NCBI GenBank assembly: GCA_043822925.1
Contig: JBDRBF010000041.1
Span: 4,957 to 68,956, forward strand
Length of the DNA stretch: 64,000 bases
Direction of reading: 5' to 3'
DNA from: a bacterium
GTDB taxonomy: Bacteria; Babelota; Babeliae; Babelales; RVW-14
Positions 2,844 to 60,655 of the stretch are shown here, piece by piece. Position 1 is the first letter of the stretch. Each line of letters opens with the position of its first letter. The notes beneath the pieces were generated by a model. That model had not been told where the DNA came from, did not search any database, and was given only the letters and a program-made list of their open reading frames with translations. A program made the translations under genes and the position numbers.

Positions 2844-2866
2844 TGCGCGTACCCCTCTATTACGTT

Positions 2867-3403: not shown

Positions 3404-3404
3404 A

Positions 3405-5078
3405 TTATTCTTCTTTTTTCGTAAGTTTTAAAGTGAATTGCACACCTTTTTCAGCAGCTGAATGCACTTCTTCTTCTTTGTCATCACGAACTAAAAGCCG
3501 AGAGTCATCAAAACGTTTTTTAAATTCAAAGAAAGCTTTAAAATGCTCCGCACCTTCACGTGATTTCAAAAAACCATCAACTGTAACTTCAGGCTTTCCT
3601 GCGATTTTTTCATCAATTGCAATTTCGCTAATATCAATATCAAACCGCTTTTTATCCATGATGCTGGTTAATTCAAAAAGAATATCAAGACAACGAACAC
3701 GCTCCTGGGCAAAAGGCGCACAAACTTCCTGTTTTTCTTTTAAAATTTTTTCAGCTTGAGCTATAACAGCAGCAAGCGACTTAGTTTTTGGTCTCTGAGC
3801 GCGAGGAATATTGTCTATGATCCGGCCAATTTCATTGTTTTCAATTTTGCTAACATATGCTGACAACTTACTTAATTGCAAGTAGCCCCGTACACCAATA
3901 AACGAAAGCAATATAAGCGCAAAAGAAAATCCAGCAATTAACTGTTTTTTAATTAACGGACGACGATCAAGAACAAACATTTTACGACGAAGATCAAATT
4001 CTACTTGTTCAGGTGATGGAATCGCCGTACCAAGAGCAATGGCATAATTACTTAAATTTGGGATTTGGCCAGAAATCTTATTCTGAATTAGCTTATTCAT
4101 AAAAAGCTTTAATGGATCAAATATTTCACAATGTACTTGAAGTATATCACTCGCAAATTGAGCCAAATCACTCACTTCTGCCGTTTTACCTGCAAATAAA
4201 ACTTTACTAACGCCTTTATAGTAATTTAATTTTAAACTAAATGAATTAAGCGTAAACTGAATATCATTAAAAAACTGCATCATGTATTTTTGAACAACGC
4301 GATCATATTCAAGGTCCCCCGTAGACTTAATCCCAATAGCTTTTAATTTTTTTAATACTTCTTCTTCTGTTACACTCGTATCTTTACTAATATGGTCGAC
4401 GATTGTTAATAAACCCTTTTGGATAGAACGCGTCAAACGCAATTTACCTTCATAAATAAACGAAATTTGTGTTACATTTACACCGACGTCAATCAAAGCG
4501 CTCCCTTGTTCAGTATTTTGATACTCAGGAATTTGCTGGTATAAACTATAAAGGGCAAATAAATCAAGCGTAATACTCTGTGGCTCTATGCCTGCTTGAC
4601 TAGTAATATCCAAAATACTTTGAATATCCTGATTTCTTACAGCAGCGACAAAAATATGCGAACTTTTCTGTTCTGGTAACTTTTCTGTCACTATAAAGTC
4701 AATACTTGCTTCATCGACAGAAAACGGCAACATAGACTCTATCTCATAATCAAGAACCATTCGTATACGCTCAGTATCAATAAACGGCACCACAAGTTCT
4801 TTAAAAACAGCGGCTGTCGGAATAGAAATACGAACCTGATCATAACGTTTAACCTGAGGCATTATTTTTTTTATTGCATCAATTGTACGCTGAGACTGTG
4901 TTTTTTCATCACCAGGCTCAAGAACTTCTTTAAACAATTTTTCTACTACTGTACAAGACCTTTTTGCATGCACAAGCGCTGCATACACCGTATCATCTTG
5001 CGTATCTATCGCCAAAATTCTCTGTGCATAAATACGTCGATTACCTATTCTTTCTGGAAGAAATAATTCTTTTATCAT
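3405..5078 (-). CDS. GspL-like (PilM-PilN fusion type) assembly-platform protein
   Basis: The N-terminal half has actin-like/PilM signatures (RILAIDTQDD..., ALIDVGVNVTQISFIYEGKLRLTRSIQKG). A central TM helix follows (LIAGFSFALILLSFIGV), then a periplasmic C-domain. The start overlaps the upstream secretin stop (ATGA at 5075-5078). Confidence 0.6.
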   Translation of the reverse strand: MIKELFLPERIGNRRIYAQRILAIDTQDDTVYAALVHAKRSCTVVEKLFKEVLEPGDEKTQSQRTIDAIKKIMPQVKRYDQVRISIPTAAVFKELVVPFIDTERIRMVLDYEIESMLPFSVDEASIDFIVTEKLPEQKSSHIFVAAVRNQDIQSILDITSQAGIEPQSITLDLFALYSLYQQIPEYQNTEQGSALIDVGVNVTQISFIYEGKLRLTRSIQKGLLTIVDHISKDTSVTEEEVLKKLKAIGIKSTGDLEYDRVVQKYMMQFFNDIQFTLNSFSLKLNYYKGVSKVLFAGKTAEVSDLAQFASDILQVHCEIFDPLKLFMNKLIQNKISGQIPNLSNYAIALGTAIPSPEQVEFDLRRKMFVLDRRPLIKKQLIAGFSFALILLSFIGVRGYLQLSKLSAYVSKIENNEIGRIIDNIPRAQRPKTKSLAAVIAQAEKILKEKQEVCAPFAQERVRCLDILFELTSIMDKKRFDIDISEIAIDEKIAGKPEVTVDGFLKSREGAEHFKAFFEFKKRFDDSRLLVRDDKEEEVHSAAEKGVQFTLKLTKKEE

Positions 5079-17049: not shown

Positions 17050-17083
17050 CACGTTACTCTAAAAACAAATTCTAACCTTAAAA

Positions 17084-17112
17084 GGCTCGTAAAATATTAC
17101 GGGCCTTTTTTT
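17084..17112 (+). terminator. Intrinsic terminator of mreB
   Basis: ggctcgtaa-aatat-ttacgggcc forms a 9-bp stem with one G-U pair, followed by ttttttta. Confidence 0.7.
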
Positions 17113-17235
17113 ATACAAAAAAAAGAACTCCTATATTCGCAAAGCTTTACAAGCAGTAATATTATAAGTAATACTAGAAAATATCTTGCGCATAAATTTA
17201 AAACAAAAGTCTTGAAGTGGACTTAAATAAGCGCT

Positions 17236-17262
17236 CGTGAATAACGTGAATAACGTGAATAA
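17236..17262 (+). repeat. Three perfect tandem copies of cgtgaataa directly upstream of the ribosome-binding site of the first A-type gene
   Basis: cgtgaataa x3 is read directly, followed by aAGGAG and an ATG at 17278. Confidence 0.9.
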
Positions 17263-17277
17263 AAGGAGAATAGTACA

Positions 17278-18969
17278 ATGACCAGAAATCTTTGTCATCA
17301 TTTTTACAAAATTCAAATCTTTTTATTCTTATCTCTTTTCTCTTCACCAGTAATCGCAAACATCTCTTTTCATAGCAAAAGTTCTGCCTGGATTGTAAGC
17401 GAGGGAGAAATTATTGTATCAGATACAACTCATCTTTATGGATGGAAAGATGCATCGGTAATAAAAGATAATGCTTATACCGGGAACAATTGGACTGGAT
17501 ACCCATCATCCCCCTGGAACTATGCAAATTTACCAAGTTTAGACGTCATAAACAATAGTAATGCCATAAATTACTATGCACCAACTATTAGAAATAACTC
17601 CCGCTTATTAAGCCAGACAAGCAACGCACTTATAACAGATATTGGCAACTTGCGAACAACAAGTAATGCCCTCCTATATGGACTAAGAATTAATAGTAAT
17701 GCTATCGTAACAAACGCTATTAATATCAAAACAAACAGTAACAGCATCGTAAAAAACAACATAGATATAAAATCGAACAGCAATGCCATTATTTCTCTGG
17801 CTGCATCTGGCATGGGAGTTCTCGCAACCCAAAATAGCAACGCCATAAATTACTACGCACCAATAATTAGAAACGATTCAAGATTATTAAAACAAACAAG
17901 TGATGCGTTTATATATAATCTTAACACAAGCGGCGCCGAGGGAATTAAAAACAATAGCAATGCAATAATAGTATTAGACAAGCTCACTAAACAAAACAGC
18001 AATGCTATAGTAAGTGGTGGCGGAGGAAGTGAAATAAACTATGAAGGCAACCTCACTATTGCTGGCCCAACCTATACATTGGCCCATAACCGATTTGCCA
18101 ACCCAGTTTCTTCAAATATTTACTTCACTGGAAATACAACTTTTAATGGCAATAATAATTATATACAATTCAGCGATAGTCCTAGCTCTATTCACGTATC
18201 TCCTGGTGTAACTGTTATTTTCTCAAATACCATATTTAAAGATCTTACTGATACAGTATTTAACTTAAGTGCCGGAGCTCAAGTAATATTTGATACAGGA
18301 ACCGTTATTGAAATAATGCGACCAACAACATTAAATCAAAACTGGATTTTCACAGGAGATTCTCTTATTTATGGTTACAATAATACACTCGATCTAGCAA
18401 ATTCTAACATTCAAATATCAAGCAATAGCACATTAACAATACACAGCCTAAATATAACTGGCCTCAAAAATAATAACTTATCGGCTACCAGCTCAAACGA
18501 CCGAATTACGCTACAAAATGCTGCACTTATACTCTCAAACAACTTTAGCTATAGCACCGGCGCATTAAGATTCGAAAACGATGTTTTAATTACCGGTACA
18601 AATACATTTACCTACGCAACAGATCAAATATCAACTATAGCATCGCAATCACACGTAATTCTGGATACCGGAGTAACGTTTGAATATAACGCCCCTATCG
18701 CAAATAGAGACCTACTGACCATGACAGATCAAACATCACGCTTAATCTTAAACGGCTGCACCCTATCTTCAACGACAACAGGCCTGCGTTTAACCAAAGG
18801 AACATTAGTTATTGAACACAAAAACAACCTATACAACACAGGCGCAACATCTTTATCAGAAGCTATTAACTTAGGTAACGGCACTCCAAATGGCGAACTG
18901 ACGATTGAAATAAAACCAGGAGCATCAATAGATCTTAAATCGGGAATCTTAAATTATGAAAATGTATAA
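17278..18969 (+). CDS. Exported repeat protein, type A1 (NSNAI heptad/14-mer repeat head plus a divergent copy of the shared C-terminal module)
   Basis: AAGGAG RBS and signal peptide ...FSSPVIA|N. More than 10 NSNAI/TSNAL repeats. The C-terminal part is alignable with the other three paralogs (FENDVLITGTNTFTY..., TGLRLTKGTLVIE). Confidence 0.85.
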   Translation: MTRNLCHHFYKIQIFLFLSLFSSPVIANISFHSKSSAWIVSEGEIIVSDTTHLYGWKDASVIKDNAYTGNNWTGYPSSPWNYANLPSLDVINNSNAINYYAPTIRNNSRLLSQTSNALITDIGNLRTTSNALLYGLRINSNAIVTNAINIKTNSNSIVKNNIDIKSNSNAIISLAASGMGVLATQNSNAINYYAPIIRNDSRLLKQTSDAFIYNLNTSGAEGIKNNSNAIIVLDKLTKQNSNAIVSGGGGSEINYEGNLTIAGPTYTLAHNRFANPVSSNIYFTGNTTFNGNNNYIQFSDSPSSIHVSPGVTVIFSNTIFKDLTDTVFNLSAGAQVIFDTGTVIEIMRPTTLNQNWIFTGDSLIYGYNNTLDLANSNIQISSNSTLTIHSLNITGLKNNNLSATSSNDRITLQNAALILSNNFSYSTGALRFENDVLITGTNTFTYATDQISTIASQSHVILDTGVTFEYNAPIANRDLLTMTDQTSRLILNGCTLSSTTTGLRLTKGTLVIEHKNNLYNTGATSLSEAINLGNGTPNGELTIEIKPGASIDLKSGILNYENV

Positions 18970-19067
18970 AAAATAAAAAAAACCTGGCTCCTGGATCCCT
19001 ACTACACCCAGGTGGCTTGGAAGGCCAGACGAGTCCTGGATAACAAGTAAAAAAGAAAGAGAGAGTT

Positions 19068-21068
19068 ATGAAGAAAAATATGAGACTATTTTTATACCTG
19101 TTTTTTGCACTATTCTTTATGCAGCAAAAAACTCATGCCTCGTTCTTTAATCCATCCCCATACACTCTAGATTACGGAACAACAGCGTCAACCGCTCGCT
19201 GGAATGCAAATGGCACATATCTAGCCGTCGGAGGAACTAACTTTCCAACCGATCTCACTATATACGGTTTTGATGGCACATACGTAACACCAAAAGCAAC
19301 AGAATCTTTTGGCAACGGAGCCTTTGCTGTCGATTGGTCACCAAACGGACAATATCTGGCCATTGGTGGAGACTACTCGACCAATGCTCTTATTATTTAT
19401 AAATGGGACGGAGTAGATACAACACTTAGCACATCAAAATATCACGGCTCATATGTAACTGCTGTCGCATGGAACCCCGCTGGAAACGCTCTTGCCGTTG
19501 GTGGCAACTGGAACAACAACAATCTTGCACTTTATAATTGGGATGGATATAACACGCTCTCGCTCACCACATCAAAATATTATGGCACACAGGTTAACGG
19601 CCTCGCTTGGAATCCAGCAGGAACTAAGCTAGCTGTTGCCGGTCAAAATCGTTACTGTGGACTAAGCCTCTACGACTGGAATGGCTCAACCCTTACGCTC
19701 ACCACATCAAAATATCACGGAATTTCCGCAAATGCTCTTGCCTGGACAAGTACCGGAACGTATCTCGCTGTTGGTGGAAACTATAATACAAACAATGTTA
19801 TTATCTATACTTTAAGCGGACCCTCATCACTCACACTCACAACATCGATTTCTTTTGGAACAAATGCTAACACGCTTTCTTGGAGTTATGATGACCGCTA
19901 TTTAACCGTCGGTGGAGACAATAGCTCTGCTGATTTGACAACCTACGAATGGAACGGCTCAACACTCACACCAATACCAAATTCACAAGCAAGTTACGGC
20001 AACGGAGTCTATGGTGCCAGCTGGAGCCCCTACTCAGATTATCTGGCTGTCGCTGGAAATAACAGCTCAAACGACTTCACACTCTATACAAGCAATGGTT
20101 ATTTAAATGGCACAAAAAATAACGTAACCCTCTCAAATCATTACTTATTTACAGATGGCGGCTATGCAAACGGTCTTGTTAATTTTACTAATGGTTGCAC
20201 CGTACTTCCTGGCAAAAAACTTAAACTTGCACTACTTACACCATTTTCCGGTGGTCTAGATTTACGAGACACAGCAACCTTACAACTTGAAGACGATTTA
20301 TATTTAGACGCAGACGTCACCCTCACAACTGGCGGCTATATTTATGGGCAAGGACATGCAATCTATTTAGAAAATGATTTAACAATTCCAGATAACACCA
20401 TCATGCACATCAGTAATGATACTATAATTGATGGAAATGGGCATAAACTTAACTTAGGACACGAAAGTCAATTATTTATAGATTGGGGAGTAACGCTCAC
20501 ACTTAGAAATATGACATTCAAAAACACCGTTAACAATCAAGATACTCCACCAGTAAGACTTAATGGAAAAACAAGCAAACTTGCTTTGGATAACATTCAT
20601 CTTGAATTATCCAGTGACTTCTCATTTACCTACGGCCAACTCTTTATTCATAACGATGTTTTAGTTACCGGCACTTCAAAGTTCAATTATCTCTCATCAC
20701 ATCAAAGCTACATAGATACATGCAGTACTCTTTACTTTGACCTTGGCACTACCTTTTCTTTTGCCCCATATTTATCGACTAATAAAGATCTTATTTACAT
20801 GAAAGATGCATCAGCGACACTATATCTTAATGGTACCACGCTTGCAATAACACACACTGGATTACGTCTAACCAGAGGCCGTTTATTAATAGATAATACA
20901 GTAACGTTCACCAGTCAATATTATGAAGGAAGTCACAAACAAGCACCAAGCAACGGGCTTATTTTTGGCAACGCTATATTTAGCGACTCTATATACGATC
21001 TAGATGTGCACCTTTTGGGTGGAGCAAATATTGGCCAATACACGTTAGTAAAAGTTGACGAAATATAA
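19068..21068 (+). CDS. Exported repeat protein, type B1 (7-bladed WD40-like beta-propeller plus shared C-terminal module)
   Basis: Signal peptide ...QQKTHA|S. Seven ~45-aa repeats of the form AWNPAGxxLAVGG...Y.W.G..LTLTTSKYHG. The C-module includes IIDGNGHKLNLG and LFIHNDVLVTGTSKFNY...NKDLIYMKD...LAITHTGLRLTRG. Confidence 0.85.
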   Translation: MKKNMRLFLYLFFALFFMQQKTHASFFNPSPYTLDYGTTASTARWNANGTYLAVGGTNFPTDLTIYGFDGTYVTPKATESFGNGAFAVDWSPNGQYLAIGGDYSTNALIIYKWDGVDTTLSTSKYHGSYVTAVAWNPAGNALAVGGNWNNNNLALYNWDGYNTLSLTTSKYYGTQVNGLAWNPAGTKLAVAGQNRYCGLSLYDWNGSTLTLTTSKYHGISANALAWTSTGTYLAVGGNYNTNNVIIYTLSGPSSLTLTTSISFGTNANTLSWSYDDRYLTVGGDNSSADLTTYEWNGSTLTPIPNSQASYGNGVYGASWSPYSDYLAVAGNNSSNDFTLYTSNGYLNGTKNNVTLSNHYLFTDGGYANGLVNFTNGCTVLPGKKLKLALLTPFSGGLDLRDTATLQLEDDLYLDADVTLTTGGYIYGQGHAIYLENDLTIPDNTIMHISNDTIIDGNGHKLNLGHESQLFIDWGVTLTLRNMTFKNTVNNQDTPPVRLNGKTSKLALDNIHLELSSDFSFTYGQLFIHNDVLVTGTSKFNYLSSHQSYIDTCSTLYFDLGTTFSFAPYLSTNKDLIYMKDASATLYLNGTTLAITHTGLRLTRGRLLIDNTVTFTSQYYEGSHKQAPSNGLIFGNAIFSDSIYDLDVHLLGGANIGQYTLVKVDEI

Positions 21069-21147
21069 AAAATCTATGCACAAAGTTAAAAATAAAACCT
21101 TAAAGTTAACTTTAACCGGCACCTGAAAATAAAGGGAGAAGAGTAAA

Positions 21148-23058
21148 ATGGCCAGAAATATTAATAGCCGTTTTTATAGCACTCGAATTTTATTATTTCT
21201 ATTTCTTTTTTTCTCAACAATAAATGCAAAAATAACTTTTCAGAACAAAAATTCAGATTGGGTTATATGCGAAAACAATACGCTTTATTTAAACACAGCA
21301 AACACCTATGGATGGCAAGCGTCATCAATTACAAAAAACAATGGGTACACAGGCGCAGCTAATACATGGACCGGATACCCAGCAGCACCATGGACCGCCA
21401 CAAACATACCAAGCTTAGATGTCATCAATAATAGTAACGCTATCAATTACAATACCCCCATTATCAGAACAAATAGCAACGCCATAAACTATTACGCCCC
21501 AATAATACGTAACAACTCATATCTTCTAAATCAAACAAGTAACGCTCTGGTCAAAAACACTCTTAATATCAGAACAAATAGTAACGCTCTGGTTAAAAAC
21601 ACTCTTGATATTAGAACCAACAGTAACGCAATACTCTACGGCGACAGAACAAATAGCAACGCCATAAACTATTACACCCCAATAATACGTAACAACTCAT
21701 ATCTTCTGAACCAAACAAGTAACGCTCTGGTCAAAAACACTATCGATACCAGAACAAATAGTAACGCTCTGGTTAAAAACACTCTTGATATCAGAACAAA
21801 TAGTAACGCTCTGGTTAAAAACACTCTTGATATTAGAACCAACAGTAACGCTCTGACGTACAATACCGATAACATCAAAAATAATAGTAATACTATCGTA
21901 GCGACTAATAGACTCACCAAACAAAATAGCAGCGCCATTATTAAAAATACGGCTGATATTTCTGCCATACCGAGCAATACAGTCGTCGTCGGGACAAGTA
22001 ACGCGATGGTTTATTATGCGCCTATGATCAGAAACAACTCATATCTTCTGAACCAAACAAGTAACGCTCTGGTCAAAAACACTCTTAATATCAGAACCAA
22101 CAGTAACGCAATACTCTACGGCGACAAAACAAATAGCAACGCCATAAACTATTACGCACCAATAATACGCAATAACTCATATCTCTTAAAACAAACGAGT
22201 AACTCCATAGCCAACCCACTTATAAAAACAAGCAACCATCTAAGTACAGGAGCCCTCATCCTAACCAGCGATTTACTGCTCACGGCAAACTGCACCGTAG
22301 ATCCCACCTCTTGCAACATCTATGGCAATGGCCACACGATTTACTTAGGCGGAGATTTAGTCCTTCCCGACGATTATATAATGCTAATTGGCAGCGACAC
22401 CATTATCGATGGTAATGGACATTCATTAATCTTAGGGAAAAGAAGTGAAATCGCTCCTGAATATACCCTCACTCTTACACTCAGGAATCTCACGCTCAAA
22501 AATATACTTAACCCACTACCTGACGCGACTCCTATTTATTTCGACGCTTCCAATTGCAACCTCGCGCTTGATAACGTCACTATGGCGCTAACCGATGACT
22601 TCCCTTTTGACAATTACAATAATGGCGCAAAACTATTCATTCACAATGACGTCATTTTCACCGGAACATCTAAGTTTATCTACCAATCCGATAAACCAGC
22701 ATACATAGATGGCAAAAGTACTTTCTATTTTGATAACAACACTACATTTTCTTTTGCTCCTCTCTCGACCAATAAAGATCTTATTTACATGAAAGATAAA
22801 ACATCAACGCTCTATCTTAATAACGCCACACTTGCAATAACACACACCGGGCTGAGACTAACCAAAGGCAACCTGTTACTGGAAAACAATGTAACTTTTA
22901 CCAGCCAACGCTACGAAGGATCCCATAAACAAGCGCTCTCAAATTCATTTGTTTTTGGTAACGCAACATTAGGTGAAAATTACGACTTAAACGTACAAAT
23001 ATTAAACAACGCGAAACTTAATGTAAAAGGCATGATTAAGAATAATAACATTAACTAG
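21148..23058 (+). CDS. Exported repeat protein, type A2 (expanded 14-residue repeat head plus shared C-terminal module)
   Basis: AGGGAG RBS and signal peptide ...FSTINA|K. Arrays of TNSNALVKNTLDIR repeats. The C-module is nearly identical in patches to B1 and B2 (IIDGNGHSLILG, LFIHNDVIFTGTSKFIY, NKDLIYMKD, LAITHTGLRLTKG). Confidence 0.85.
   Translation: MARNINSRFYSTRILLFLFLFFSTINAKITFQNKNSDWVICENNTLYLNTANTYGWQASSITKNNGYTGAANTWTGYPAAPWTATNIPSLDVINNSNAINYNTPIIRTNSNAINYYAPIIRNNSYLLNQTSNALVKNTLNIRTNSNALVKNTLDIRTNSNAILYGDRTNSNAINYYTPIIRNNSYLLNQTSNALVKNTIDTRTNSNALVKNTLDIRTNSNALVKNTLDIRTNSNALTYNTDNIKNNSNTIVATNRLTKQNSSAIIKNTADISAIPSNTVVVGTSNAMVYYAPMIRNNSYLLNQTSNALVKNTLNIRTNSNAILYGDKTNSNAINYYAPIIRNNSYLLKQTSNSIANPLIKTSNHLSTGALILTSDLLLTANCTVDPTSCNIYGNGHTIYLGGDLVLPDDYIMLIGSDTIIDGNGHSLILGKRSEIAPEYTLTLTLRNLTLKNILNPLPDATPIYFDASNCNLALDNVTMALTDDFPFDNYNNGAKLFIHNDVIFTGTSKFIYQSDKPAYIDGKSTFYFDNNTTFSFAPLSTNKDLIYMKDKTSTLYLNNATLAITHTGLRLTKGNLLLENNVTFTSQRYEGSHKQALSNSFVFGNATLGENYDLNVQILNNAKLNVKGMIKNNNIN
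21409..22228 (+). repeat. In-frame coding repeat array (7/14-codon periodicity with runs of near-identical 42-nt units)
   Basis: Near-identical units such as agaacaaatagtaacgctctggttaaaaacactcttgatatc recur in tandem at ~21535-21640 and ~21715-21850. A larger block (NSNAINYYAPIIRNNSYLLNQTSNALVKNTLNIRTNSNAILYGD) recurs at ~21478 and ~22010. Confidence 0.85.
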
Positions 23059-23062
23059 AAAA

Positions 23063-23080
23063 CCGGGGTTAAAACCCCGG
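23063..23080 (+). repeat. GGGGTT..AACCCC palindromic hairpin just after the A2 stop codon
   Basis: ccgggg-ttaaaa-ccccgg. It has the same core as the hairpins at 395-412 and 23208-23225. Confidence 0.6.
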
Positions 23081-23181
23081 CCTAACAAGAGCTTCGTGCT
23101 ACCGCACGAGAAAGCTTCGATGAACATGAAAACCGATAAATGTAAAATTCCTAAACCCTTACAATTAAAGGCGAGATCATC

Positions 23182-25263
23182 ATGCAGAGCCTGAAATTTG
23201 CAATAGCCTGGGGTTTTAACCCCAGACTGAAAAAAAAACTATTACTTCTGTTCCTGTTTTTTACTCTATTTTTTATAACACAAAAAATAGAAGCTTCTTT
23301 CTTTGATCCTTCTCCATTCACTCAAGATTATGGAGATGGCATTTTGCACGCCTACGCGACCCAATGGAACCCAGCCGGAACACACCTGGCCGTTGGTGGC
23401 ATAAATTATCCAAACGATGTAACGATATACGAATGGGATGGCCAGTATCTCGAGACAACAAATAGTATCAATTTTGGCGCAGGCGCTTTTGCACTGAGCT
23501 GGTCACCAAACGGGCAATATTTAGCCGTTGGCGGCGACCATAATTACAATTCACTTATTATTTATAAATGGGACGGCGTATCGCTCACGCTTACGACATC
23601 AAAATATCACGGCACACAAGTTAACGCTGTATCCTGGAACCCGGCTGGCGACACGCTCGCAGTCGGCGGCGTGTGGGGCAATAACCCGCTTGTTATGTAT
23701 AGTTGGGATGGCTTAAATTCGCTCACGCTCACGACGTCAAAATATCACGGCACGCAAGTTAATACGCTTGCCTGGCACCCAGACGGAACTAAACTGGCCG
23801 TGGGGGGAATTTATGGAACCCGCGACGTCATACTCTATGGCTGGAGCAACCCAACACTGACGCCTATAACATCTCTTGACCATGGGTCTGAAACCAACGC
23901 ACTTGACTGGAGCTCAACGGGTTCTTTTTTGGCTGTCGGCGGCGCCAACACGCCAAACGACATTGGGATCTATATGCTCAGCGGCTCTACGTTAATACAA
24001 AAAACAACTGCAACTTTCGGAACAAAAGCAAAAACACTCGCTTTTAGTTTTGACGACACGATACTTGCTGTCGGCGGCATTAATCCCGGCTCTGATTTGT
24101 TAGTATATCAAACATCTATCGTTTCTGCTTACCCAGGCTTCGCGTACCTCAACCCAGTGAGCAGTTCACAAACAAGTTATGGCAACGGTGTTTATAGTGT
24201 TGCCTGGACCCCATACTCAGATTATCTGGCTGTCGCTGGCGATAATGGCTCAAGCGATTTAACCATCTACAAAAATCACAACTACTTAAATGGCACTAAA
24301 AATAATATTACCCTCACAGACAAGTACGTATTTAGTGGTGATGGCGTCGGCTTTGTAATCGGTTCTGTTACATTCAAAAACGGCTGCGACATGGGAAACA
24401 CCTGGATAACAATGGCCCTTACCGAACCATTTTCTGGAGAACTTGCAAATGCTAGTGAGCTCATACTAGAAAACGATTTATATCTCAATTCAAACACTAC
24501 CATAGCCTCAGTAGAACTCGGGTTTTACGGTAACGGCCACACAATTCATTTGGGCGGAGATTTAATCATCCCGGATGCTTCAACATTCTACATCGATAAC
24601 GACACAGCCATTGACGGGAATGGACACTCGTTAATTTTGGGCAACCAGAGTAACCTTAATGTAGGCAACACGGTCACGCTCACACTCAGAAATCTAACAC
24701 TCAAAAACACGGTTAACACACAAGCTCTTCCCCCTATCGTTGCGTCTTCAAGTACCGCCAAAATCGCCCTCGATAACGTCAAGCTCGCGCTTACCGATGA
24801 TTTCTATTTCCCCACCGGCCAGCTCTTTATCCACAATGACGTTATGTTTACCGGAACATCGAAGTTTATCTACAAATCACCATATCAAAGCTATATTACC
24901 AAAAATGCAACGCTCTACTTCGGCCCACACACAATATTTAAGTACAATCCAAACTCAACAAATAATAATTTAATTGCTATGCAAGATGCTTCGTCAAGCC
25001 TGTATCTAGACGGCTGCACGCTACAACTTACACACACAGGGCTGCGCTTATCAAAAGGACAAATATACCTGGAAAATAGTGTCACATTCACCAGCCCATA
25101 TTCAGAAATAAACCCATCTGATGCATCAACAAGTTATCAGTCAGCATCTACTGGCTTAATTTTAGGCAATTCTATATTGGGACCAGATTATAACTTAAAT
25201 ATAGATGTTTTGGGTGGAGCGAATATTAATCAGCATTGTTTTGTAACATTTGATGAGGCATAG
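23182..25263 (+). CDS. Exported repeat protein, type B2 (7-bladed WD40-like beta-propeller plus shared C-terminal module)
   Basis: Signal peptide ...ITQKIEA|S and seven propeller repeats. The C-module includes AIDGNGHSLILG, LFIHNDVMFTGTSKFIY and LQLTHTGLRLSKG. The ATG at 23182 has an aaggcgag RBS. The 15-aa N-terminal extension relative to B1 contains a palindromic element, so the start is somewhat uncertain. Confidence 0.8.
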   Translation: MQSLKFAIAWGFNPRLKKKLLLLFLFFTLFFITQKIEASFFDPSPFTQDYGDGILHAYATQWNPAGTHLAVGGINYPNDVTIYEWDGQYLETTNSINFGAGAFALSWSPNGQYLAVGGDHNYNSLIIYKWDGVSLTLTTSKYHGTQVNAVSWNPAGDTLAVGGVWGNNPLVMYSWDGLNSLTLTTSKYHGTQVNTLAWHPDGTKLAVGGIYGTRDVILYGWSNPTLTPITSLDHGSETNALDWSSTGSFLAVGGANTPNDIGIYMLSGSTLIQKTTATFGTKAKTLAFSFDDTILAVGGINPGSDLLVYQTSIVSAYPGFAYLNPVSSSQTSYGNGVYSVAWTPYSDYLAVAGDNGSSDLTIYKNHNYLNGTKNNITLTDKYVFSGDGVGFVIGSVTFKNGCDMGNTWITMALTEPFSGELANASELILENDLYLNSNTTIASVELGFYGNGHTIHLGGDLIIPDASTFYIDNDTAIDGNGHSLILGNQSNLNVGNTVTLTLRNLTLKNTVNTQALPPIVASSSTAKIALDNVKLALTDDFYFPTGQLFIHNDVMFTGTSKFIYKSPYQSYITKNATLYFGPHTIFKYNPNSTNNNLIAMQDASSSLYLDGCTLQLTHTGLRLSKGQIYLENSVTFTSPYSEINPSDASTSYQSASTGLILGNSILGPDYNLNIDVLGGANINQHCFVTFDEA
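23208..23225 (+). repeat. GGGGTT..AACCCC palindromic hairpin inside the 5' end of the B2 ORF
   Basis: ctgggg-ttttaa-ccccag, read directly. Confidence 0.6.
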
Positions 25264-25310
25264 GGAAAATAGAACAAATGACAAATCAAGAACAGAACAA
25301 CATTCGATAA

Positions 25311-26849
25311 ATCGGGGAGGAGAAGCTCGCGCAAGCGGGCTTCGTCCTCCCACACCACCGTACGTACTCATCGTATACGGCGGTTTCTTCTAACTTTTTT
25401 TTCACAAAGATTCGAAAATCTCACAAATACTTATAAACCCGTTCATTCTCCACCATTCAACACCCATAGCTTTATGTGCTTGTGGGATAAGAGCTAATCG
25501 CCACCATCCATTTCCAGATGTTGCCGCCATCCAGGCTCTCGCCAGTCTAATGCCGCGTTGTATCAACATTGTTGCAATTGTCTTTGCTCTCTTTAATTGT
25601 TTTAGTCGATAACAGCGAAGTTTATGCCGAATCCATCCATCAAGTTCTTTCAATGTGCTTTCGGATTCTGCATACCTAAAGTATCACATCCATCCAGGCA
25701 AAATAGTGTTGATTTCTCGAATCACCTCTTCCAAACTCTTTCCACGATTTCTCTTTGTTGCCGCTCGCATTTTATCTTTGAATCGCTCGATACTTTGTTG
25801 CGCGATTCTTAAGATGCCTCTACGATCAATACGATAGCCAAGAAACTTCCGAGCCCCTACCGGGAGCCACCGTGCTTTTCTTCTGGTTGATTTTCAGCCT
25901 GAGCTTGGTTTCTAGAAATTCTCTAATTGATTGCATTACTCGTTCTCCTGCTCTTTCTGATTGCACATAGATATTACAATCATCTGCGTAGCGACAAAAT
26001 TTGTGTCCTCTTCTTTCTAGCTCCTTATTACCCGAGACATGAGAATATCGTGATTTACCCGATCAAAGAATTTCGCTAGATCAATATCAACGACCCATAG
26101 TCGATCCTCACGCACATATTCTTGTGCCTGTTTTATCGCTTGATGGGCACTTCTTCCAGGCCTAAATCCGTAGCTTGAATTTGAAAAAATATTGTTCGAA
26201 TATTGGAGAGAGCGCTTGAAGAAGCGCTTGTTGAACGAGTCTATCAATGACCGTCGGAATACCCAAGTCTCTTTGACCACCTCCTGGTTTTGGTATGCTT
26301 ACACGTTTTACCGGTTGCACTTTATACCTATCGCCCAAAAGAGAGTCTACTAATTCTTGTTCATTCTCAACGTACCATTGCTTCAGTGTATTAACGGTCA
26401 TTCCATCAACGCCAGCGGCGCCTTTGTTTGCCATAACACGCTGCAGAGCCTGCCTCAAGTTATCCCTTTGGCAGACTACCTCCATTTTTTTTCCGCTACT
26501 ACGGCTTCTGCTAACTTCTCTGCAACATCTCCATATTGTTGCCAATATAGCCGCTTAGTTTTACTCAGCTATTTGCAAAAATCTCCCGGGGTAATGCACA
26601 CTTCCTTCACATCGGCTCCACTGGATTTACTACCACGATATACGAGTGACTATATGGCTTCTTCGTCTATAGCCGAATTACCTATCGCGTAGGCCTTATA
26701 TCCAGTTTCTGTTCGTTGGATCCATGTTTTCGTCGTCAGCTTCCTTCAGATTTTACCTCACGGTGAACACCATTGCCTAGACGTAGAGTTCCGGTCACTC
26801 GGTCTGTGGGAGACTTTCACTCCTGGAAAGTGCGCCATGCCCGGCACAC
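25311..26849 (-). mobile_element. Degenerate group II intron (class C-like); boundaries approximate
   Basis: The minus strand starts GTGTGCCGGG at 26849. It encodes RT/maturase fragments. A domain V-like hairpin lies at ~25354-25385 (ACCGCCGTATAC...GTACGTACGGTGGT, with CGC in the triad position). A GC-rich domain VI-like hairpin lies at ~25314-25351. G+C is visibly higher than in the flanks. Confidence 0.75.
25402..26545 (-). pseudogene. Group II intron reverse transcriptase/maturase, disrupted
   Basis: Fragments: ...QRVMANKGAAGVDGMTV...IPKPGGGQRDLGIPTVIDRLVQQALLQ; then a frameshift; ...YGFRPGRSAHQA...VVDIDLAKFFDRVNHDILMSRV; a stop plus loss of the segment that normally carries the PQGG/SPLL block; ELERRGHKFCRYADDCNIYV; an in-frame TGA at 25684-25686; and the maturase tail LDGWIRHKLRCYRLKQ.... 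Confidence 0.85.
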
Positions 26850-26882
26850 TAATAAAAGGGCCCGTAATTTCTTACGGGCCCC
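26850..26882 (-). terminator. Intrinsic terminator of the 26955-27704 gene, abutting the intron 5' end
   Basis: The minus strand reads GGGGCCCGTAA-gaaa-TTACGGGCCC, followed by TTTTATTA, then the intron GTGTG. Confidence 0.7.
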
Positions 26883-26954
26883 AAATTAAAGACAAAAACT
26901 AGGAAACCAGGATAATAAAAAAAATATATACTTCACGTATTAACGTGTATAAAT

Positions 26955-27704
26955 TTATGCGCCAATATATGCAGGAAACACAACTTTAAAAAGCCCGCAA
27001 GCTTTTCCAAATGCGTCATACATAGCAGCAGTCATGGCAGTAACTAAAGCTCCAGGGGCTTTATCTATAACAAAATTAACATCAAAATTTTTTACGACAC
27101 GCTCTTGCAGCCTCGTTAATTTTTCTTTTAAAACAGGCGAACAACATTTAAAATTCACACAATCTTTCAATGTAGTTTTTAAACCAATAAGAACATTTTT
27201 AGTAATATTACCTGATAAATATGCCAAATATGGCACCAAAATTTTTGCCAGATTTTTTGTTAAAACAAAAGCATTACGTACATTAAATAAACCAAGAGAT
27301 AGATAAGTAAAAAGAACCACCATTAAAAATGCTTTAATAGCAAAAATAAATTGCGCCGTATTTATGCTTATTTTGTCAGTCTCTCGTATTTTATTATACG
27401 TTTCTTTAATAACTTCACGCGTAAGCTGACAAACGTCTTTAATCTCACTAAATTTATCAGAAACTTTATTTTGAATACTTTTTTCCAAATCAAACACAAA
27501 AGAGACTATTTTCTCAAATGTGCTATGCAAGCGCAGAGCACTCTCTGGTGTGATATTTTTTTCAAGATTAAATTCTCGAGTAGTTTCTTGATTATTAAGC
27601 ATAACGTTATTATTTTGACAATTATTAATCGATAAACAGATGATATTAAAAAGTAAAAACATACTTAAAAAAGGTGCATGTGTGCGCAAATAAGATAATG
27701 ACAT
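26955..27704 (-). CDS. Hypothetical membrane/exported protein
   Basis: 249-aa ORF with an N-terminal hydrophobic segment (FLSMFLLFNIICLSI), an internal TM (FIFAIKAFLMVVLFTYLSLGLF) and its own terminator. No recognisable family motif. Confidence 0.5.
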   Translation of the reverse strand: MSLSYLRTHAPFLSMFLLFNIICLSINNCQNNNVMLNNQETTREFNLEKNITPESALRLHSTFEKIVSFVFDLEKSIQNKVSDKFSEIKDVCQLTREVIKETYNKIRETDKISINTAQFIFAIKAFLMVVLFTYLSLGLFNVRNAFVLTKNLAKILVPYLAYLSGNITKNVLIGLKTTLKDCVNFKCCSPVLKEKLTRLQERVVKNFDVNFVIDKAPGALVTAMTAAMYDAFGKACGLFKVVFPAYIGA

Positions 27705-27828
27705 AATATAACCCCCTATTATTACTTAAAACCCATTTATAGGACAACTTTAAGTATAACAAATTGGCCAAATATGTCAAATAGGCAATATAGTATGATT
27801 TTAGGGTCCCTAGGTGGAAAAATAAAAG

Positions 27829-29751: not shown

Positions 29752-30663
29752 CTAAAATTTGCCAATACGTTTACCAAGACTAAATGGCGCTACTTTAGCA
29801 TCAAAAGCTTCTTGTTCTGATTTTACCTGAGATTTTTGTTGATTTTGCTTTTGCTGGTAATTTTGTTTTTGTTGGCTTTGCTTTGTTTGATAAGCAGGTT
29901 GTATTTGTTTATTTTGATACAAAAGCGTTATGGGATGAAAATTCGTAGGAGCAGGAAACTGAGAACAAGAATCAAAAAGATCTTGAGCCCCTTTGATAGC
30001 AAGAACTTTAAAAGCATCAAAATGTTCCCATGCCAGAGGCATTTTTTCAGCCGTCCCCTGAATTTCTATTAATTTTCCAGATTTAGTTAAAACAAAATTA
30101 AAATCAGCATCAGTATTGTTATCTTCTTGACAGCACAAATCAAGACAAGAAATCCCGTCAAGATTGCCAACAGAAATCGCCGCAATAGAATCTTTAATAA
30201 CAGAAGCATCAAAGATAGAAGCTTGGATCCAGCGCTGACATGCAAGATTAAGAGCTAAACTCGCAGCTGTAATACAAGCGACACGGGTGCCACCATCAGC
30301 TTGCAAAACATCGCAATCGACAATAATTGTTTTTTCGCCAAGTTTATCTAGGTCGACAATAGATCTTAAACTACGACCAATAAGGCGTGAAATTTCAACG
30401 CTACGAGCATTTCTTTGTTGTTGCGTAGATTCTCTATCGCTACGCTTATGCGTCGAACAGGGGAGCATTGCATATTCGGCAGTAAGCCAACCAGTTTGTT
30501 GTCCTCTTAAAAAAGCGGGTACACCAATTTGCAAGTATACAGATGCCAAAACTTTTGTATGGCCGATAGAAAAAAGAACGCTCGCATTGGAGTATCCTAA
30601 AATATCATATTCCAAAGAAATAGGGCGCAACTGATTAGTTGCGCGCCCATCTATTCTTAACAT
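29752..30663 (-). CDS. rph: Ribonuclease PH with a Q/K-rich C-terminal extension
   Basis: Motifs RIDGRATNQLRP, TAEYAMLPCST and DCDVLQADGGTR. About 60 extra C-terminal residues (QTKQSQQKQNYQQKQNQQKSQ...). Confidence 0.92.
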   Translation of the reverse strand: MLRIDGRATNQLRPISLEYDILGYSNASVLFSIGHTKVLASVYLQIGVPAFLRGQQTGWLTAEYAMLPCSTHKRSDRESTQQQRNARSVEISRLIGRSLRSIVDLDKLGEKTIIVDCDVLQADGGTRVACITAASLALNLACQRWIQASIFDASVIKDSIAAISVGNLDGISCLDLCCQEDNNTDADFNFVLTKSGKLIEIQGTAEKMPLAWEHFDAFKVLAIKGAQDLFDSCSQFPAPTNFHPITLLYQNKQIQPAYQTKQSQQKQNYQQKQNQQKSQVKSEQEAFDAKVAPFSLGKRIGKF

Positions 30664-30674
30664 AAAATATCGAT

Positions 30675-32771
30675 TTATTTAGGTTCTACGAGACTGAGAC
30701 GAACTCTACCGGTGCTCTTTTCATAAGCAACGACTTGAACTTTGAGTTTGTCACCAGTTCTGTAGTTATCATTAAGATTTCTTTGTAAATCACGTGGTAT
30801 CGAAGATATATGAACTAACCCTTCTTTACCCGCAACGAGTTCAACAAATAAACCAAATTCAGCTACTTTTTTAATTATGCCTTCGAATTCAGAACCAACC
30901 TCAATTTCACCGACAAGAGTTCTGATCCAAGCTTCAGCAGCTCTTGCAGACTCTGTACTGTGAGCATATATATTTATTGTTCCATCATCTTCGATATCAA
31001 TTTGTGCTTCAGTCTTAGCAACAATTTCTTTAATATTTTTGCCACCAGGCCCGATAATAGCACCAATTTTATCTTGAGGAACTTTCATTGTAAATATTTG
31101 AGGAGCTAAGTCTGAAATCTTATCTCTTGGAGCGGTCATTGTTTTTCTCATCTCTTGCAAGATGTGAAGACGACCAACTTTTGCTTGAGTTAACGCTTTT
31201 ACCAAAAGATCCTGAGATAGCCCTATTTTACTTTTTACATCCAACTGAAACGCCATGATACCATGGTCTGTTCCAGTTACTTTAAAGTCCATAAGACCAA
31301 GAGCATCTTCTGTACCGAGAATATCGGTAAGAATATGATAATTGCCCGATGAATCTTTAATCATACCCATTGCAACGCCACTGACCATTTCTTTAATTGG
31401 CACACCAGCATCCATGAGAGCAAGCGTTGTTGCGCAAACTGTAGCCATTGATGATGAACCGTTAGATTCTAAAATATCAACGACAGCACGAATCGTGTAT
31501 GGGAAACTTTTTTGATCAGGCAAAACATTCATAAACGATTGCTCAGCTAAATATCCGTGTCCTACTTCACGTCTTCCCACTCCACGCATAGGCTTTACTT
31601 CGCCTGTTGCAAATGGCAAGAAATTATAATGAAGCATAAACGAACGTTCAATTGTTCCACCAAGAAGAGTATCTACTTTTTGAGCATCTTGAGCGGTTCC
31701 AAGCGTAAGACTTGTAATAGCCTGCGTTTCTCCACGAAGAAAAGTTGCAGAACCGTGAACACATGGAAGTAAACTTACTTCAGATGTGATCAGTCTGACT
31801 TCCTCAAAATTACGCATATCGATGCGTTGTTTTTTCTTGGCCATAACGTTTGGCATAACTTCTTTTACAAGTTCACCACAAAGATATTTAATTACTGACC
31901 CAGAAACAATTCCTGCTTCTATTTCTTTATTAAAAGTAGCAACTATCTCTGACTGCAATGCATCCAGAGCAGCGCTGCGCTCAGACTTTGTCTTACCAAA
32001 AACATTTTCTATAGCTTGCTCAGAGACAAGAGCTTTAACTTTAGTCGTCCAACCTGCCCAATCAATACCATCACCAGCGCTCATCTTTTCTTTTCCGCAC
32101 TCTTTTTGAATAGCTAACTGCCACTCAACTTGTTGCTTAATAAGATCATGAGCTGCCAATAAAAGCTTGATAAGCTCTTCTTCTGGAAGATTATTACAAT
32201 AACCTTCGACCATTGAGATACCTGTTTTTGTTCCTGCAATAGTAACCAGAGTATCTGAAGAAGATATTTGCGTATGACTTGGATTAAAATGCCATTCGTT
32301 AGCAATCCTGCACGCTTGAACAGCTCCAACTGGATCTAAAAATGGGATGTCAGAAATCACCAAAGCTAAAGATGAACCTATCATCGCCAGAATATCTACT
32401 GGAAAATTACCATCTGAAGAATACACAGTGGCAAGAACTTGAACTTCATTAAAAAAATCAGATGGAAAAAGAGGACGTATTGGACGATCAATAAGACGAG
32501 ATGTCAAAACTTCTCTATCAGACAGACGGCCCTCTCTCTTCAAATAACCACCCGGAATTTTACCTGCAGCAGAAACAAGTTCCCGATACTGTACAGATAA
32601 TGGGAAAAAGCCCATAAAGTCTTTTGGTTCTGAAGCTGCTACCGCTGTTGCCAGGACAATATTTTTACCGGATTTTATCCATGCTGCGCCATTTGCTTGA
32701 CGAGCAAATTTACCGATTTCAACTTCTAATCCTAACTCTGGAAGGCTAAATTTCTTAAGCATAATACTCAT
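30675..32771 (-). CDS. pnp: Polynucleotide phosphorylase
   Basis: Two RNase PH-like domains, a KH motif (GPGGKNIKEI) and an S1 domain (GIIKKVAEFGLFVEL). 698 aa, downstream of rpsO. Confidence 0.96.
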   Translation of the reverse strand: MSIMLKKFSLPELGLEVEIGKFARQANGAAWIKSGKNIVLATAVAASEPKDFMGFFPLSVQYRELVSAAGKIPGGYLKREGRLSDREVLTSRLIDRPIRPLFPSDFFNEVQVLATVYSSDGNFPVDILAMIGSSLALVISDIPFLDPVGAVQACRIANEWHFNPSHTQISSSDTLVTIAGTKTGISMVEGYCNNLPEEELIKLLLAAHDLIKQQVEWQLAIQKECGKEKMSAGDGIDWAGWTTKVKALVSEQAIENVFGKTKSERSAALDALQSEIVATFNKEIEAGIVSGSVIKYLCGELVKEVMPNVMAKKKQRIDMRNFEEVRLITSEVSLLPCVHGSATFLRGETQAITSLTLGTAQDAQKVDTLLGGTIERSFMLHYNFLPFATGEVKPMRGVGRREVGHGYLAEQSFMNVLPDQKSFPYTIRAVVDILESNGSSSMATVCATTLALMDAGVPIKEMVSGVAMGMIKDSSGNYHILTDILGTEDALGLMDFKVTGTDHGIMAFQLDVKSKIGLSQDLLVKALTQAKVGRLHILQEMRKTMTAPRDKISDLAPQIFTMKVPQDKIGAIIGPGGKNIKEIVAKTEAQIDIEDDGTINIYAHSTESARAAEAWIRTLVGEIEVGSEFEGIIKKVAEFGLFVELVAGKEGLVHISSIPRDLQRNLNDNYRTGDKLKVQVVAYEKSTGRVRLSLVEPK

Positions 32772-33226: not shown

Positions 33227-33302
33227 TGGTAGGCACGAGCGGACTCGAACCGCTGACCCTTGCTACGTCAAAGCAATGCTCTACCAACTGAGCTACGCGC
33301 CT
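33227..33302 (-). tRNA. tRNA-Val (GAC)
   Basis: Hand-folded cloverleaf: AGGCGCG/TA/GCTC..GAGC/A/TTGCT-TTGACGT-AGCAA/GGGTC/AGCGG-TTCGAGT-CCGCT/CGTGCCT/A/CCA. Confidence 0.9.
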
Positions 33303-44879: not shown

Positions 44880-44955
44880 TGGCAGGCCAGGAGGGACTCG
44901 AACCCCCAACACGCGGATTTGGAGTCCGCTGCTCTACCATTGGAGCTACTGACCT
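44880..44955 (-). tRNA. tRNA-Trp (CCA)
   Basis: Cloverleaf AGGTCAG/TA/GCTC..GAGC/A/GCGGA-CTCCAAA-TCCGC/.../CTGGCCT/G/CCA. Confidence 0.9.
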
Positions 44956-44973
44956 TCAAAACAACTCTCAAAC

Positions 44974-45132
44974 CTACTTCGTCTCTTTGTGCGCAGAATG
45001 CTTTCTGCAACCAGCACAAAACTTCTGCAGCTCCAGTTTCCCGAAAGCTCTCTTCTTAGAAACTTTTTTGCTGTAGTTTCTAATCTTACAAATCCCACAT
45101 TCAAGATGAACTATCGTTCTATTTTTTGCCAT
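44974..45132 (-). CDS. rpmG: 50S ribosomal protein L33
   Basis: MAKNRTIVHLECGICKIRNYSKKVSKKRAFGKLELQKFCAGCRKHSAHKETK. The start is taken at MAKNR, not at the longer ORF. Confidence 0.9.
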   Translation of the reverse strand: MAKNRTIVHLECGICKIRNYSKKVSKKRAFGKLELQKFCAGCRKHSAHKETK

Positions 45133-45181
45133 AGTAAAAAACTTTCTATCTAACCTTGGGGCTGAAACCACAAACTGCAAG

Positions 45182-45257
45182 TGGAGCCCGCGACCGGGAT
45201 TGAACCGGTGACCTCTCCCTTACCAAGGAAGTGCTCTACCAACTGAGCTACGTGGGC
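45182..45257 (-). tRNA. tRNA-Thr (GGT)
   Basis: Cloverleaf GCCCACG/TA/GCTC..GAGC/A/CTTCC-TTGGTAA-GGGAG/.../CGCGGGC/T/CCA, with one A-C mismatch in the acceptor stem. Confidence 0.85.
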
Positions 45258-45463
45258 AACAATTTATGCCTATAAACAATCAATCCACATAATCCACAAA
45301 TCTATAAGGCAACCAATCATTAAATATCGATATAAAACACTCTTTGTTTTTATATCTCATAATCTAATTAGAATCTTAAAAAATTTAGCACATTCCAACG
45401 GTTATAACAAGCACTATTTACATTGCAAAACACAATTTACACCGAAAGAACATGTCTTATTCA

Positions 45464-45539
45464 TGGAGCTGGCAACTGGACTCGAACCAGCGACCTGCTG
45501 ATTACAAATCAGCTGCTCTACCAACTGAGCTATGCCAGC
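45464..45539 (-). tRNA. tRNA-Thr (TGT)
   Basis: Cloverleaf GCTGGCA/TA/GCTC..GAGC/A/GCTGA-TTTGTAA-TCAGC/.../TGCCAGC/T/CCA. Confidence 0.9.
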
Positions 45540-45547
45540 ACTCGTTC

Positions 45548-45624
45548 TGGAGCGGGAAACGGGGCTCGAACCCGCAACCTACAGCTTGGAAGGCTGTCGC
45601 TCTAGCCAATTGAGCTATTCCCGC
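45548..45624 (-). tRNA. tRNA-Gly (TCC)
   Basis: Cloverleaf GCGGGAA/TA/GCTC..GAGC/G/ACAGC-CTTCCAA-GCTGT/.../TTCCCGC/T/CCA. Confidence 0.9.
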
Positions 45625-45681
45625 TTATAAAATTTCTATTTCAATAGCATTTAACTGCACCAATCATCTTTTCCAAAGAGA

Positions 45682-45766
45682 TGGTGGGGAGAACAGGATT
45701 CGAACCTGTGAAGGCGTAGCCAACGGATTTACAGTCCGTCCCCTTTGACCGCTCGGGAATCTCCCC
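45682..45766 (-). tRNA. tRNA-Tyr (GTA), long variable arm
   Basis: GGGGAGA...ACGGA-CTGTAAA-TCCGT, a long variable arm, ACAGG-TTCGAAT-CCTGT, then TCTCCCC/A/CCA. Confidence 0.9.
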
Positions 45767-60580: not shown

Positions 60581-60655
60581 TGGAGCCGATGATCGGATTT
60601 GAACCGACGGCCTACTGATTACGAATCAGTTGCTCTACCCCTGAGCTACATCGGC
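60581..60655 (-). tRNA. tRNA-Thr (CGT)
   Basis: Cloverleaf GCCGATG/TA/GCTC..GAGC/A/ACTGA-TTCGTAA-TCAGT/.../CATCGGC/T/CCA. Confidence 0.88.

Follow-up and report, generated by a model that had tools for sequence, protein, structure and literature searches.

The DNA analysed here (the window) is a stretch of 64,000 nucleotides (nt) of contig JBDRBF010000041.1, assembly GCA_043822925.1, and the element lying at positions 25311-26849 is very probably what decay has left of a bacterial class C (IIC) group II intron, a self-splicing mobile element. It contains the remains of a reverse transcriptase (RT)/maturase flanked by group II ribozyme domains, is inserted in sense orientation directly downstream of an intrinsic-terminator stem-loop, and carries six lesions: two deletions, two +1 frameshifts, one stop codon and one branch-site change. 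All coordinates are window positions, and the element is read on the minus strand throughout; its features are collected in Table 1. The host is an uncultured Dependentiae (TM6) bacterium, represented by a metagenome-assembled genome (MAG); named PNPase homologues with 60-66% identity belong to Candidatus Babeliales, candidate division TM6 and Dependentiae, and one is labelled Epsilonproteobacteria.

Three-frame translation of the element yields RT/maturase pieces in alternating frames, with the YADD motif in the context RYADDCNIY. The four fragments (A-D) were joined into a rebuilt RT, and the lesions within it were defined by alignment with eight intact homologues. The rebuilt RT scores 319.6 bits with TIGR04416, 'group II intron reverse transcriptase/maturase' (cut-off 300). 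Its Pfam domains are RVT_1 and GIIM only, the latter being found in fragment D (PF08388, E 5.7e-20); an endonuclease domain was not found. Among proteins of solved structure the best match is the GsI-IIC RT (E 2.5e-102, 345.7 bits), followed at 207-249 bits by two chains named 'Group II intron reverse transcriptase/maturase' and 'Retron-type reverse transcriptase', which we take to be the class IIC group II intron RTs of Eubacterium rectale and Roseburia intestinalis. The IIB RT TeI4h reaches 117 bits (E 7e-33) and the IIA RT LtrA 85 bits (E 5e-23). By these sequence comparisons, the RT is placed with those of the class C lineage and, like them, has no endonuclease domain.

In order to collect relatives, genome contigs were searched by using the rebuilt RT. 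At least 80 loci (L001-L080), from many phyla, encode RTs 43-52% identical to it, the best standing at about 50% among the matches listed, which include no close copy. Identities across this search and the protein homologue searches, which covered 5.8 billion proteins, range between 43 and 54%. Because the RTs among these proteins reach at most about 54% identity, the window intron is assigned, by sequence identity, to an unsampled sub-lineage. A lineage-specific peptide, KQWYVEN, was back-translated and sought in metagenomes, giving one chance match, which is not an RT, and no close copy. The sole Babeliales intron among the matches listed, L076 from a Candidatus Babeliales MAG, encodes an RT only 45% identical to that of the window. 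Distant RTs from many phyla, the distance of L076 and the raised G+C of the element (see below) would fit horizontal acquisition from the unsampled sub-lineage and a long residence since then. Intact relatives are 1,870-1,933 nt long, with open RT frames and a branch A. Subsets of the relatives were used for specific comparisons: 20 were scanned with Rfam models, 14 had their upstream flank inspected, 15 served for the comparison of 5' ends and exon-binding site 1 (EBS1), and 34 distinct ones were aligned with the window over domains V and VI (35 sequences).

The hallmarks reported for IIC introns are a CGC triad, a shorter distal stem in domain V, an AGGAA bulge and a terminator stem-loop as target (PMC1702495). 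Ribozyme domains were identified by using Rfam models with gathering scores of 32 (RF02001), 35 (RF01998) and 40 (RF00029); matches to the last two come from a local search. RF02001 (group-II-D1D4-3) is matched over the full model (1-170) at 26596-26767, with 125.9 bits, and 19 of 21 complete copies among the relatives score 109-150 bits, L016 reaching 63.9. In this alignment UCUGAAGGAAGC (26739-26750) is placed against the Rfam consensus UCUGAAGGAAgc, which identifies the AGGAA bulge at the level of sequence; AGGAA is kept in 14 of 15 relatives, with AGGGA in L009. RF01998 (D1D4-1) gives 34.7 bits at 26464-26553, versus 45.6-79.3 bits in relatives, and downstream of 26497 its match is RT coding sequence forced onto the model; the low score is due to a deletion in domains III and IV, described below. 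All 20 relatives scanned have the RF02001 plus RF01998 architecture. Group II ribozyme domains are present in the window, with RF02001 above its gathering score and RF01998 and RF00029 below theirs.

The fold of domains V and VI was evaluated on the alignment of 35 sequences. The triad pairs C-G, G-U and C-G in every one of them, and the window shows the class C form of domain V, having CGC for AGC and a distal stem of 2 bp; in IIC introns this stem is 2 bp shorter than in others (PMC1702495). Pairing reaches 98.6% in the alignment, versus 40-49% when the partners are slid. Compensatory changes occur at 11 of the 21 pairs, and the observed covariation score was reached by none of 500 shuffles. 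The window forms all 21 pairs, including the 11 of the domain VI helix. The domain VI sequence (GTGGTGTGGGAGGA...TCCTnCCCGAT) is common to about 78 relatives. A sequence-only reading that preceded this analysis had allowed for the hairpin at 25314-25351 being the terminator of the neighbouring B2 gene, which would have moved the 3' boundary elsewhere; on the evidence of its sequence the hairpin is domain VI and not that terminator and, because it is shared with the relatives, the 3' boundary stands at 25311.

The insertion site conforms to the IIC pattern. The terminator hairpin, GGGCCCGTAA-GAAA-TTACGGGCCC, lies 74 nt past the stop codon (26955) of an open reading frame (ORF) of 249 amino acids (aa) on the same strand. 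It has a folding energy of -21.1 kcal/mol and is the strongest of four terminator-like sites recognised by a terminator scan (11 pairs, 7 G-C). The intron starts at 26849 with GTGTGCCGGG / GUGUGCCGGGCAUGG, of the GUGUG type, so that the 5' splice site falls between 26850 and 26849 and the spacing from the hairpin is 8 nt, inside the range of 3-11 nt from the stem-loop reported for IIC splice sites (PMC1702495). The 3' end reads ...AACCGCCGUAUAC-GAUGA-GUACGUACGGUGG-UG-UGGGAGGA...UCCUCCCCGAU and ends with ...CGAU at 25311. The GUGYG boundary is in the same register as in 15 relatives, and the AY boundary in the same register as in 78. Most of the 14 upstream flanks inspected (10 or more, by eye) show an intron beginning with GTGYGCC directly after a hairpin and a T-run, and all the correctly delimited 3' ends carry AACCGCCG...GGTGGTGTGRGAGG...CCTACYCGAT. 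The stem-loop at 26858-26881 is the structure recognised as the intron target, and occupies the place of intron-binding site 2 (IBS2) in IIA and IIB introns. The window sequence predicts ...UUUUAUUA/UUAUCGAAUG as the ligated-exon junction and ...GGGCCCTTTTATTA/TTATCGAATG... as the empty site.

EBS1 was located by its covariation with the 5' exon in the 15 relatives compared: in 8 of them it pairs with IBS1 over 4 bp, and in the remaining ones at three of four positions. In the window, UAUA faces AUUA and 2 of 4 positions are paired; bulging of one exon U would raise this to 4. The UAAU within GGUAAUUCGG, which complements AUUA, was also considered as EBS1 and was rejected, as every relative keeps GGUAA/GGUGA there as a conserved motif and the loop that covaries is found 8 nt beyond it.

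The element resembles two well-described IIC introns. The RT of GsI-IIC from Geobacillus stearothermophilus (6AR1, 6AR3) is collinear with the window RT over residues 5-157 and 206-412, and the two agree in domain content: RT, thumb/maturase and a short C-terminus, an endonuclease domain being absent. Unlike GsI-IIC, the window copy has nothing that corresponds to residues ~158-205 (RT motif 4), two frameshifts and a stop interrupt its RT, and domains III and IV of its ribozyme are incomplete. B.h.I1 from Bacillus halodurans, which serves as the IIC reference for splicing and for targeting to terminators (PMC1702495), has the same 5' end, GUGUGCC-GGCAUG (primers GTGTGCCAGGCATGC). Both B.h.I1 and the window intron are inserted a few nt past a terminator stem-loop and have the CGC triad and the AGGAA bulge; a short EBS1 and no IBS2 are further features of B.h.I1 that the window intron may share. 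B.h.I1 is intact, multi-copy and self-splicing, whereas the window copy is truncated, single in 64 kb, has C at the branch site and an EBS1-IBS1 pairing of 2 bp.

Decay of the window copy affects both ribozyme and protein. About 205 nt have been lost by deletion from domains III and IV: of domain III the 3' strand is gone, with the conserved motif GAAGGNCCGAA, absent from the window intron, and of domain IV the 5' arm. Only 11 nt lie between GTAGTA, a conserved motif in domain III, and RT codon 1, where 15 relatives have 198-260 nt (median 216). In the RT palm, a loss of 53 codons, ...LARRVADKRLLR...TPQGGPLSPLLANLLLDDLD, includes RT motif 4 (TPQGGPLSPLLAN), and NHDILMSRV runs straight into KELERRGHKF. 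Together, these two deletions explain why the element, at 1,539 nt, is ~350 nt shorter than intact relatives. The second frameshift is recognised by KSTVAP and VGARKFLGY lying in successive frames, where homologues read KSAVAPVxERKFLGY. The TGA replaces a Thr codon, GWM(stop)YFRYA corresponding to GWVTYFRYA in the homologues; its translation as Trp (genetic code 4) was rejected, as rpoB, rpoC and PNPase have long open frames under table 11. There is no bulged A in domain VI: position 25317 is C, and the corresponding base is A in all 34 relatives of the curated alignment. A regular-expression search over the wider set gave 78 A and 2 C, the latter being the window and the mis-delimited L050, so that all 78 correctly delimited relatives have A. 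The change from A to C is read as a mutation within a family member, and not as evidence against ancestry. The element has neither an uninterrupted RT ORF nor a complete six-domain ribozyme.

Table 1. Features of the intron relic and of its insertion site, in window coordinates.
Feature	Position	Strand	Remarks
Whole intron relic, GUGUG to GAU	25311..26849	-	1,539 nt
Intrinsic-terminator stem-loop of the 249-aa gene	26858..26881	-	10-bp GC-rich stem, GAAA loop
T-rich tail UUUUAUUA (also given as TTTTATTA)	26850..26857	-	between hairpin and intron 5' end
IBS1, AUUA	26850-26853	-	last 4 nt of the T-rich tail
Distal part of domain I, with AGGAA bulge and EBS1 loop	26596..26767	-	RF02001
AGGAA bulge, IIC-type	26741-26745	-	RF02001 alignment
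EBS1 loop, GC-UAUA-GA	26668-26671 (EBS1)	-	covariation with the 5' exon in 15 relatives
Domain II and 5' half of domain III	26497..26553	-	RF01998
Domain III/IV deletion junction, GCGG and A-run	26486..26496	-	about 205 nt lost
RT fragment A (MEVVCQRDNL...SPIFEQYF)	26186..26485	-	RT motifs 0-2
First +1 frameshift, extra T in T6 run	26184..26189	-	removing one T restores EQYFSNSSYGFRPGRS, collinear with homologues
RT fragment B (SNSSYGFRPGRS...NHDILMSRV)	26029..26184	-	RT motifs 2a-3
53-codon deletion junction	26027..26028	-	~157 nt lost, frame changes; eight intact homologues
RT fragment C (KELERRGHKFCRYADDCNIYV...KSTVAP)	25862..26026	-	motifs 5-7, includes YADD
Second +1 frameshift (ccc-g-gta)	25861..25864 (about)	-	one extra base
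RT fragment D, thumb/maturase (X) domain and C-terminus	25402..25860	-	natural stop at 25402-25404
In-frame TGA	25684-25686	-	inside fragment D
Domain V	25355..25383	-	CGC at triad (25380-25382), 2-bp distal stem (AC/GU)
Domain VI, GC-rich hairpin	25313..25352	-	branch-site bulge 25317 is C

Much of this had been anticipated by the sequence-only reading, which described a terminator hairpin followed by a GUGYG-type 5' end, YADD-containing RT fragments with a frameshift near 26162-26280 (now traced to the extra T), the loss of ~55 aa between NHDILMSRV and ELERRGHKF (now set at 53 codons), the in-frame TGA, a domain V-like hairpin with CGC and a GC-rich domain VI-like hairpin without a bulged A. 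Its assignment to class C, and to an element now immobile, agrees with the RF02001 match, the GsI-IIC RT as best structural match, the hallmarks and the lesions. The lesions it listed are confirmed, but the second frameshift and the ~205-nt deletion had been missed, so that decay is heavier than described; these two and the branch-site change are new relative to it.

As a result of the lesions, the window intron should no longer be able to make its protein, and is almost certainly incapable of folding into an active ribozyme, of splicing and of moving. It would then be inert intergenic DNA between two convergent genes, transcribed at most by read-through of the terminator. It is very unlikely that the element still folds and splices by hydrolysis, in the manner of an ORF-less IIC intron, and that an intact RT from another locus of the genome could mobilise it in trans. 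Such activity would agree with the RF02001 score of domain I, inside the range of intact relatives, and with the intact helix pairs of domains V and VI; moreover, at least one IIC intron self-splices by hydrolysis without branching (PMC1702495), and therefore the loss of the branch A alone is not lethal. Without the domain III 3' strand and the domain IV 5' arm, however, the central wheel cannot close, EBS1 and IBS1 pair over just 2 bp, and an RF02001 search revealed no second intron copy within the 64-kb window. Of the consensus domain I pairs, 10 of 71 are broken in the window, versus 0-15 (median 3) in relatives, a count that is sensitive to the alignment; broken pairs were dropped as a gauge of decay, as divergent intact relatives also score badly through misalignment.

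Several points weigh against a decayed IIC intron and have to be set beside the evidence in its favour. RF00029 (domains V/VI) gives 26.9 bits at 25311-25385, with an E-value of 0.011 that refers to a 1.9-kb local search, and this is below the gathering score; the same model reaches 40 bits or more in just 7 of 20 intact relatives, and the sub-threshold match in the window is yet accompanied by the formation of every domain V/VI pair. The EBS1-IBS1 pairing is the weakest of the 16 introns compared (3-4 of 4 in the others), and may reflect an ectopic site or drift after insertion. The empty site was not found: among 5.8 billion proteins the product of the 249-aa gene has no homologue but itself, an exact 31-nt pattern spanning the terminator had zero matches in a metagenome scan, and the nearest available relative, L082 (GCA_043800995.1, PNPase 72% identical), offers no comparable site, since the entire segment is absent there.

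The class assignment, in addition, rests on RTs of solved structure and on the RNA hallmarks, and not on a phylogeny of all classes. This, and weak partial matches of the RT to the retron St85 and Drt2 models, could speak for another intron class, or for a non-intron RT (retron, diversity-generating retroelement, Drt or group II-like) lying beside a terminator by chance. That explanation is vanishingly improbable. The retron and Drt models have cut-offs of 235-390 bits and are matched at 37-52 bits, whereas the score with TIGR04416 exceeds the one set for that model. IIC is defined, and distinguished from IIA and IIB, in which none of these features occurs, by the CGC triad, the AGGAA bulge, a target at terminators, an EBS1 loop of 3-4 bp and a protein that has no endonuclease domain. 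A non-intron identity of the RT is refuted by the RT model scores together with the ribozyme domains flanking the RT.

The source of the sequence, finally, is a metagenome bin, and the homopolymer frameshift could be an assembly error. Frameshifts in a T6 run and by a single extra base are both typical error types, and could be taken to mean that the real genome has an intact IIC intron, its decay being an artefact of assembly or sequencing. We regard this as extremely unlikely. Six independent lesions would have to be explained, including clean deletions of ~205 and 157 nt, a stop at a Thr codon and a change at an invariant base, and the neighbouring PNPase, rpoB, rpoC and 693-aa genes are uninterrupted; assembly errors would hardly account for the deletions, the stop codon or the change at the branch site.

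The relic would have arrived in the way established for its class. In IIC introns the RNA and its own RT/maturase form a particle, and the RNA reverse-splices into DNA a few nt past a hairpin and is then copied into DNA; insertion past the end of a transcription unit does little harm. The window copy landed 8 nt past the terminator of a lineage-specific gene, the 249-aa one, in the same orientation, in a variable segment adjoining an array of WD40 surface-protein paralogues, and afterwards decayed by deletions, frameshifts, the TGA and the change of the branch A to C.

For annotation, 1.5 kb between convergent genes can be described as a dead mobile element, rather than as small ORFs or an RNA of unknown nature, and the hairpin at 25313-25352 as intron domain VI, rather than as a terminator. 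A documented IIC relic is added to the Dependentiae (TM6), a phylum whose members depend on hosts and have reduced genomes, and provides a worked example of IIC decay, in which domains III/IV and the RT palm suffered internal deletions and the branch A was lost. The current understanding of group II introns is unchanged, the element being an ordinary genomic fossil.

Some features of the relatives were observed alongside. Introns at several loci begin directly after the domain VI of a previous copy (...CCTACCCGAT/TGTGCCAGGCATG), forming tandem IIC introns (L038, at 1812-4330; L061; L047), and three domain V/VI ends lie within 7 kb in L038; this arrangement is consistent with domain VI acting as hairpin target. 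Many RT gene calls (L001-L080, P0001-P0120) are ~471 aa long, with a conserved N-terminal extension of ~57 aa (...GDQLYLFEG...VRPGAGGKGGTR...), while other calls are of 414-415 aa and start with MEEVC. The extension reads across the domain III/IV RNA region, and may be translated or may be conserved as RNA only.

The genomic context was compared with that of related genomes. In L082 the gene order is rpsO, pnp, an RNase PH-like gene, genes for proteins of 174 and ~320 aa and a Fis-type helix-turn-helix (HTH) gene, followed by a convergent mreB; the HTH gene and mreB are about 110 nt apart (5244-5352 of L082) and share one hairpin. In the window, about 10.8 kb of lineage-specific DNA (17050-27828) separate the HTH gene from an mreB 86% identical to that of L082. 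This segment contains the 249-aa ORF, the terminator, the intron and paralogues of 563, 666, 636 and 693 aa. As the 249-aa gene is also absent from L082, the intron is inside the variable segment, and not at its edge, as had been supposed from the sequence. In L083, a more distant relative, other genes follow the HTH gene, this position being a synteny break in the clade.

Base composition was also at variance with the sequence-only reading, according to which 60-nt lines of the element had 45-57% G+C, against 30-40% in the flanks: these lines range between 33 and 63%, with a mean of 44%. The element as a whole has 44.6% G+C, versus 37.4% for the window, and falls within the top 1.1% of stretches of equal size. 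Its left flank, the 693-aa WD40 gene, has 43.6% and its right flank 31.5%, so that the contrast is on the right only. The 249-aa ORF (26955-27704, minus strand) has 28-33% G+C and no Pfam domain.

The four tandem paralogues, at 17278-25263 on the plus strand, alternate between types A and B. Type A proteins (563 and 636 aa) have no Pfam match, and their genes contain internal DNA repeats of 42 and 180 nt; those of type B (666 and 693 aa, with a mutual identity of 53%) have a pectate-lyase-like adhesive domain after a WD40 beta-propeller. All four proteins resemble one another towards the C-terminus, the 636-, 666- and 693-aa ones with about 50% identity over ~260-340 aa and the 563-aa one with about 36% over ~160-190 aa. 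The G+C content rises to 48-54% in parts of the array, that of the genome being 37%.

A second terminator-like hairpin, AAAAAAGGCCCGTAA-TATT-TTACGAGCCTTTT (17075-17116, minus strand, -14.1 kcal/mol), adjoins mreB. The stem GGCCCGTAA...TTACG is common, in the same orientation, to the hairpins at 17088-17105, beside MreB, and at 26863-26880, in the intron target; this pattern is found in two places only in 64 kb, with 0 expected by chance, and the two hairpins bracket the A/B array and the intron. It is highly doubtful that the relic and the two related terminator hairpins are traces of the acquisition or rearrangement of the WD40 array, for which recombination between terminator-resident repeats or intron copies would be a possible route. 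If true, the relic would be more than a passive insertion and would mark the scar of a recombination.

Elsewhere in the window, a 303-aa protein with RNase PH domains is encoded at 29752-30663 (minus strand), directly downstream of PNPase (30675-32771, minus strand), and is kept in L082 and L083. Seven tRNA genes are present on the minus strand: two lie at 33230-33302 and 60584-60655, and five are clustered at 44883-45766, upstream of the rplK-rplA-rplJ-rplL-rpoB-rpoC region.

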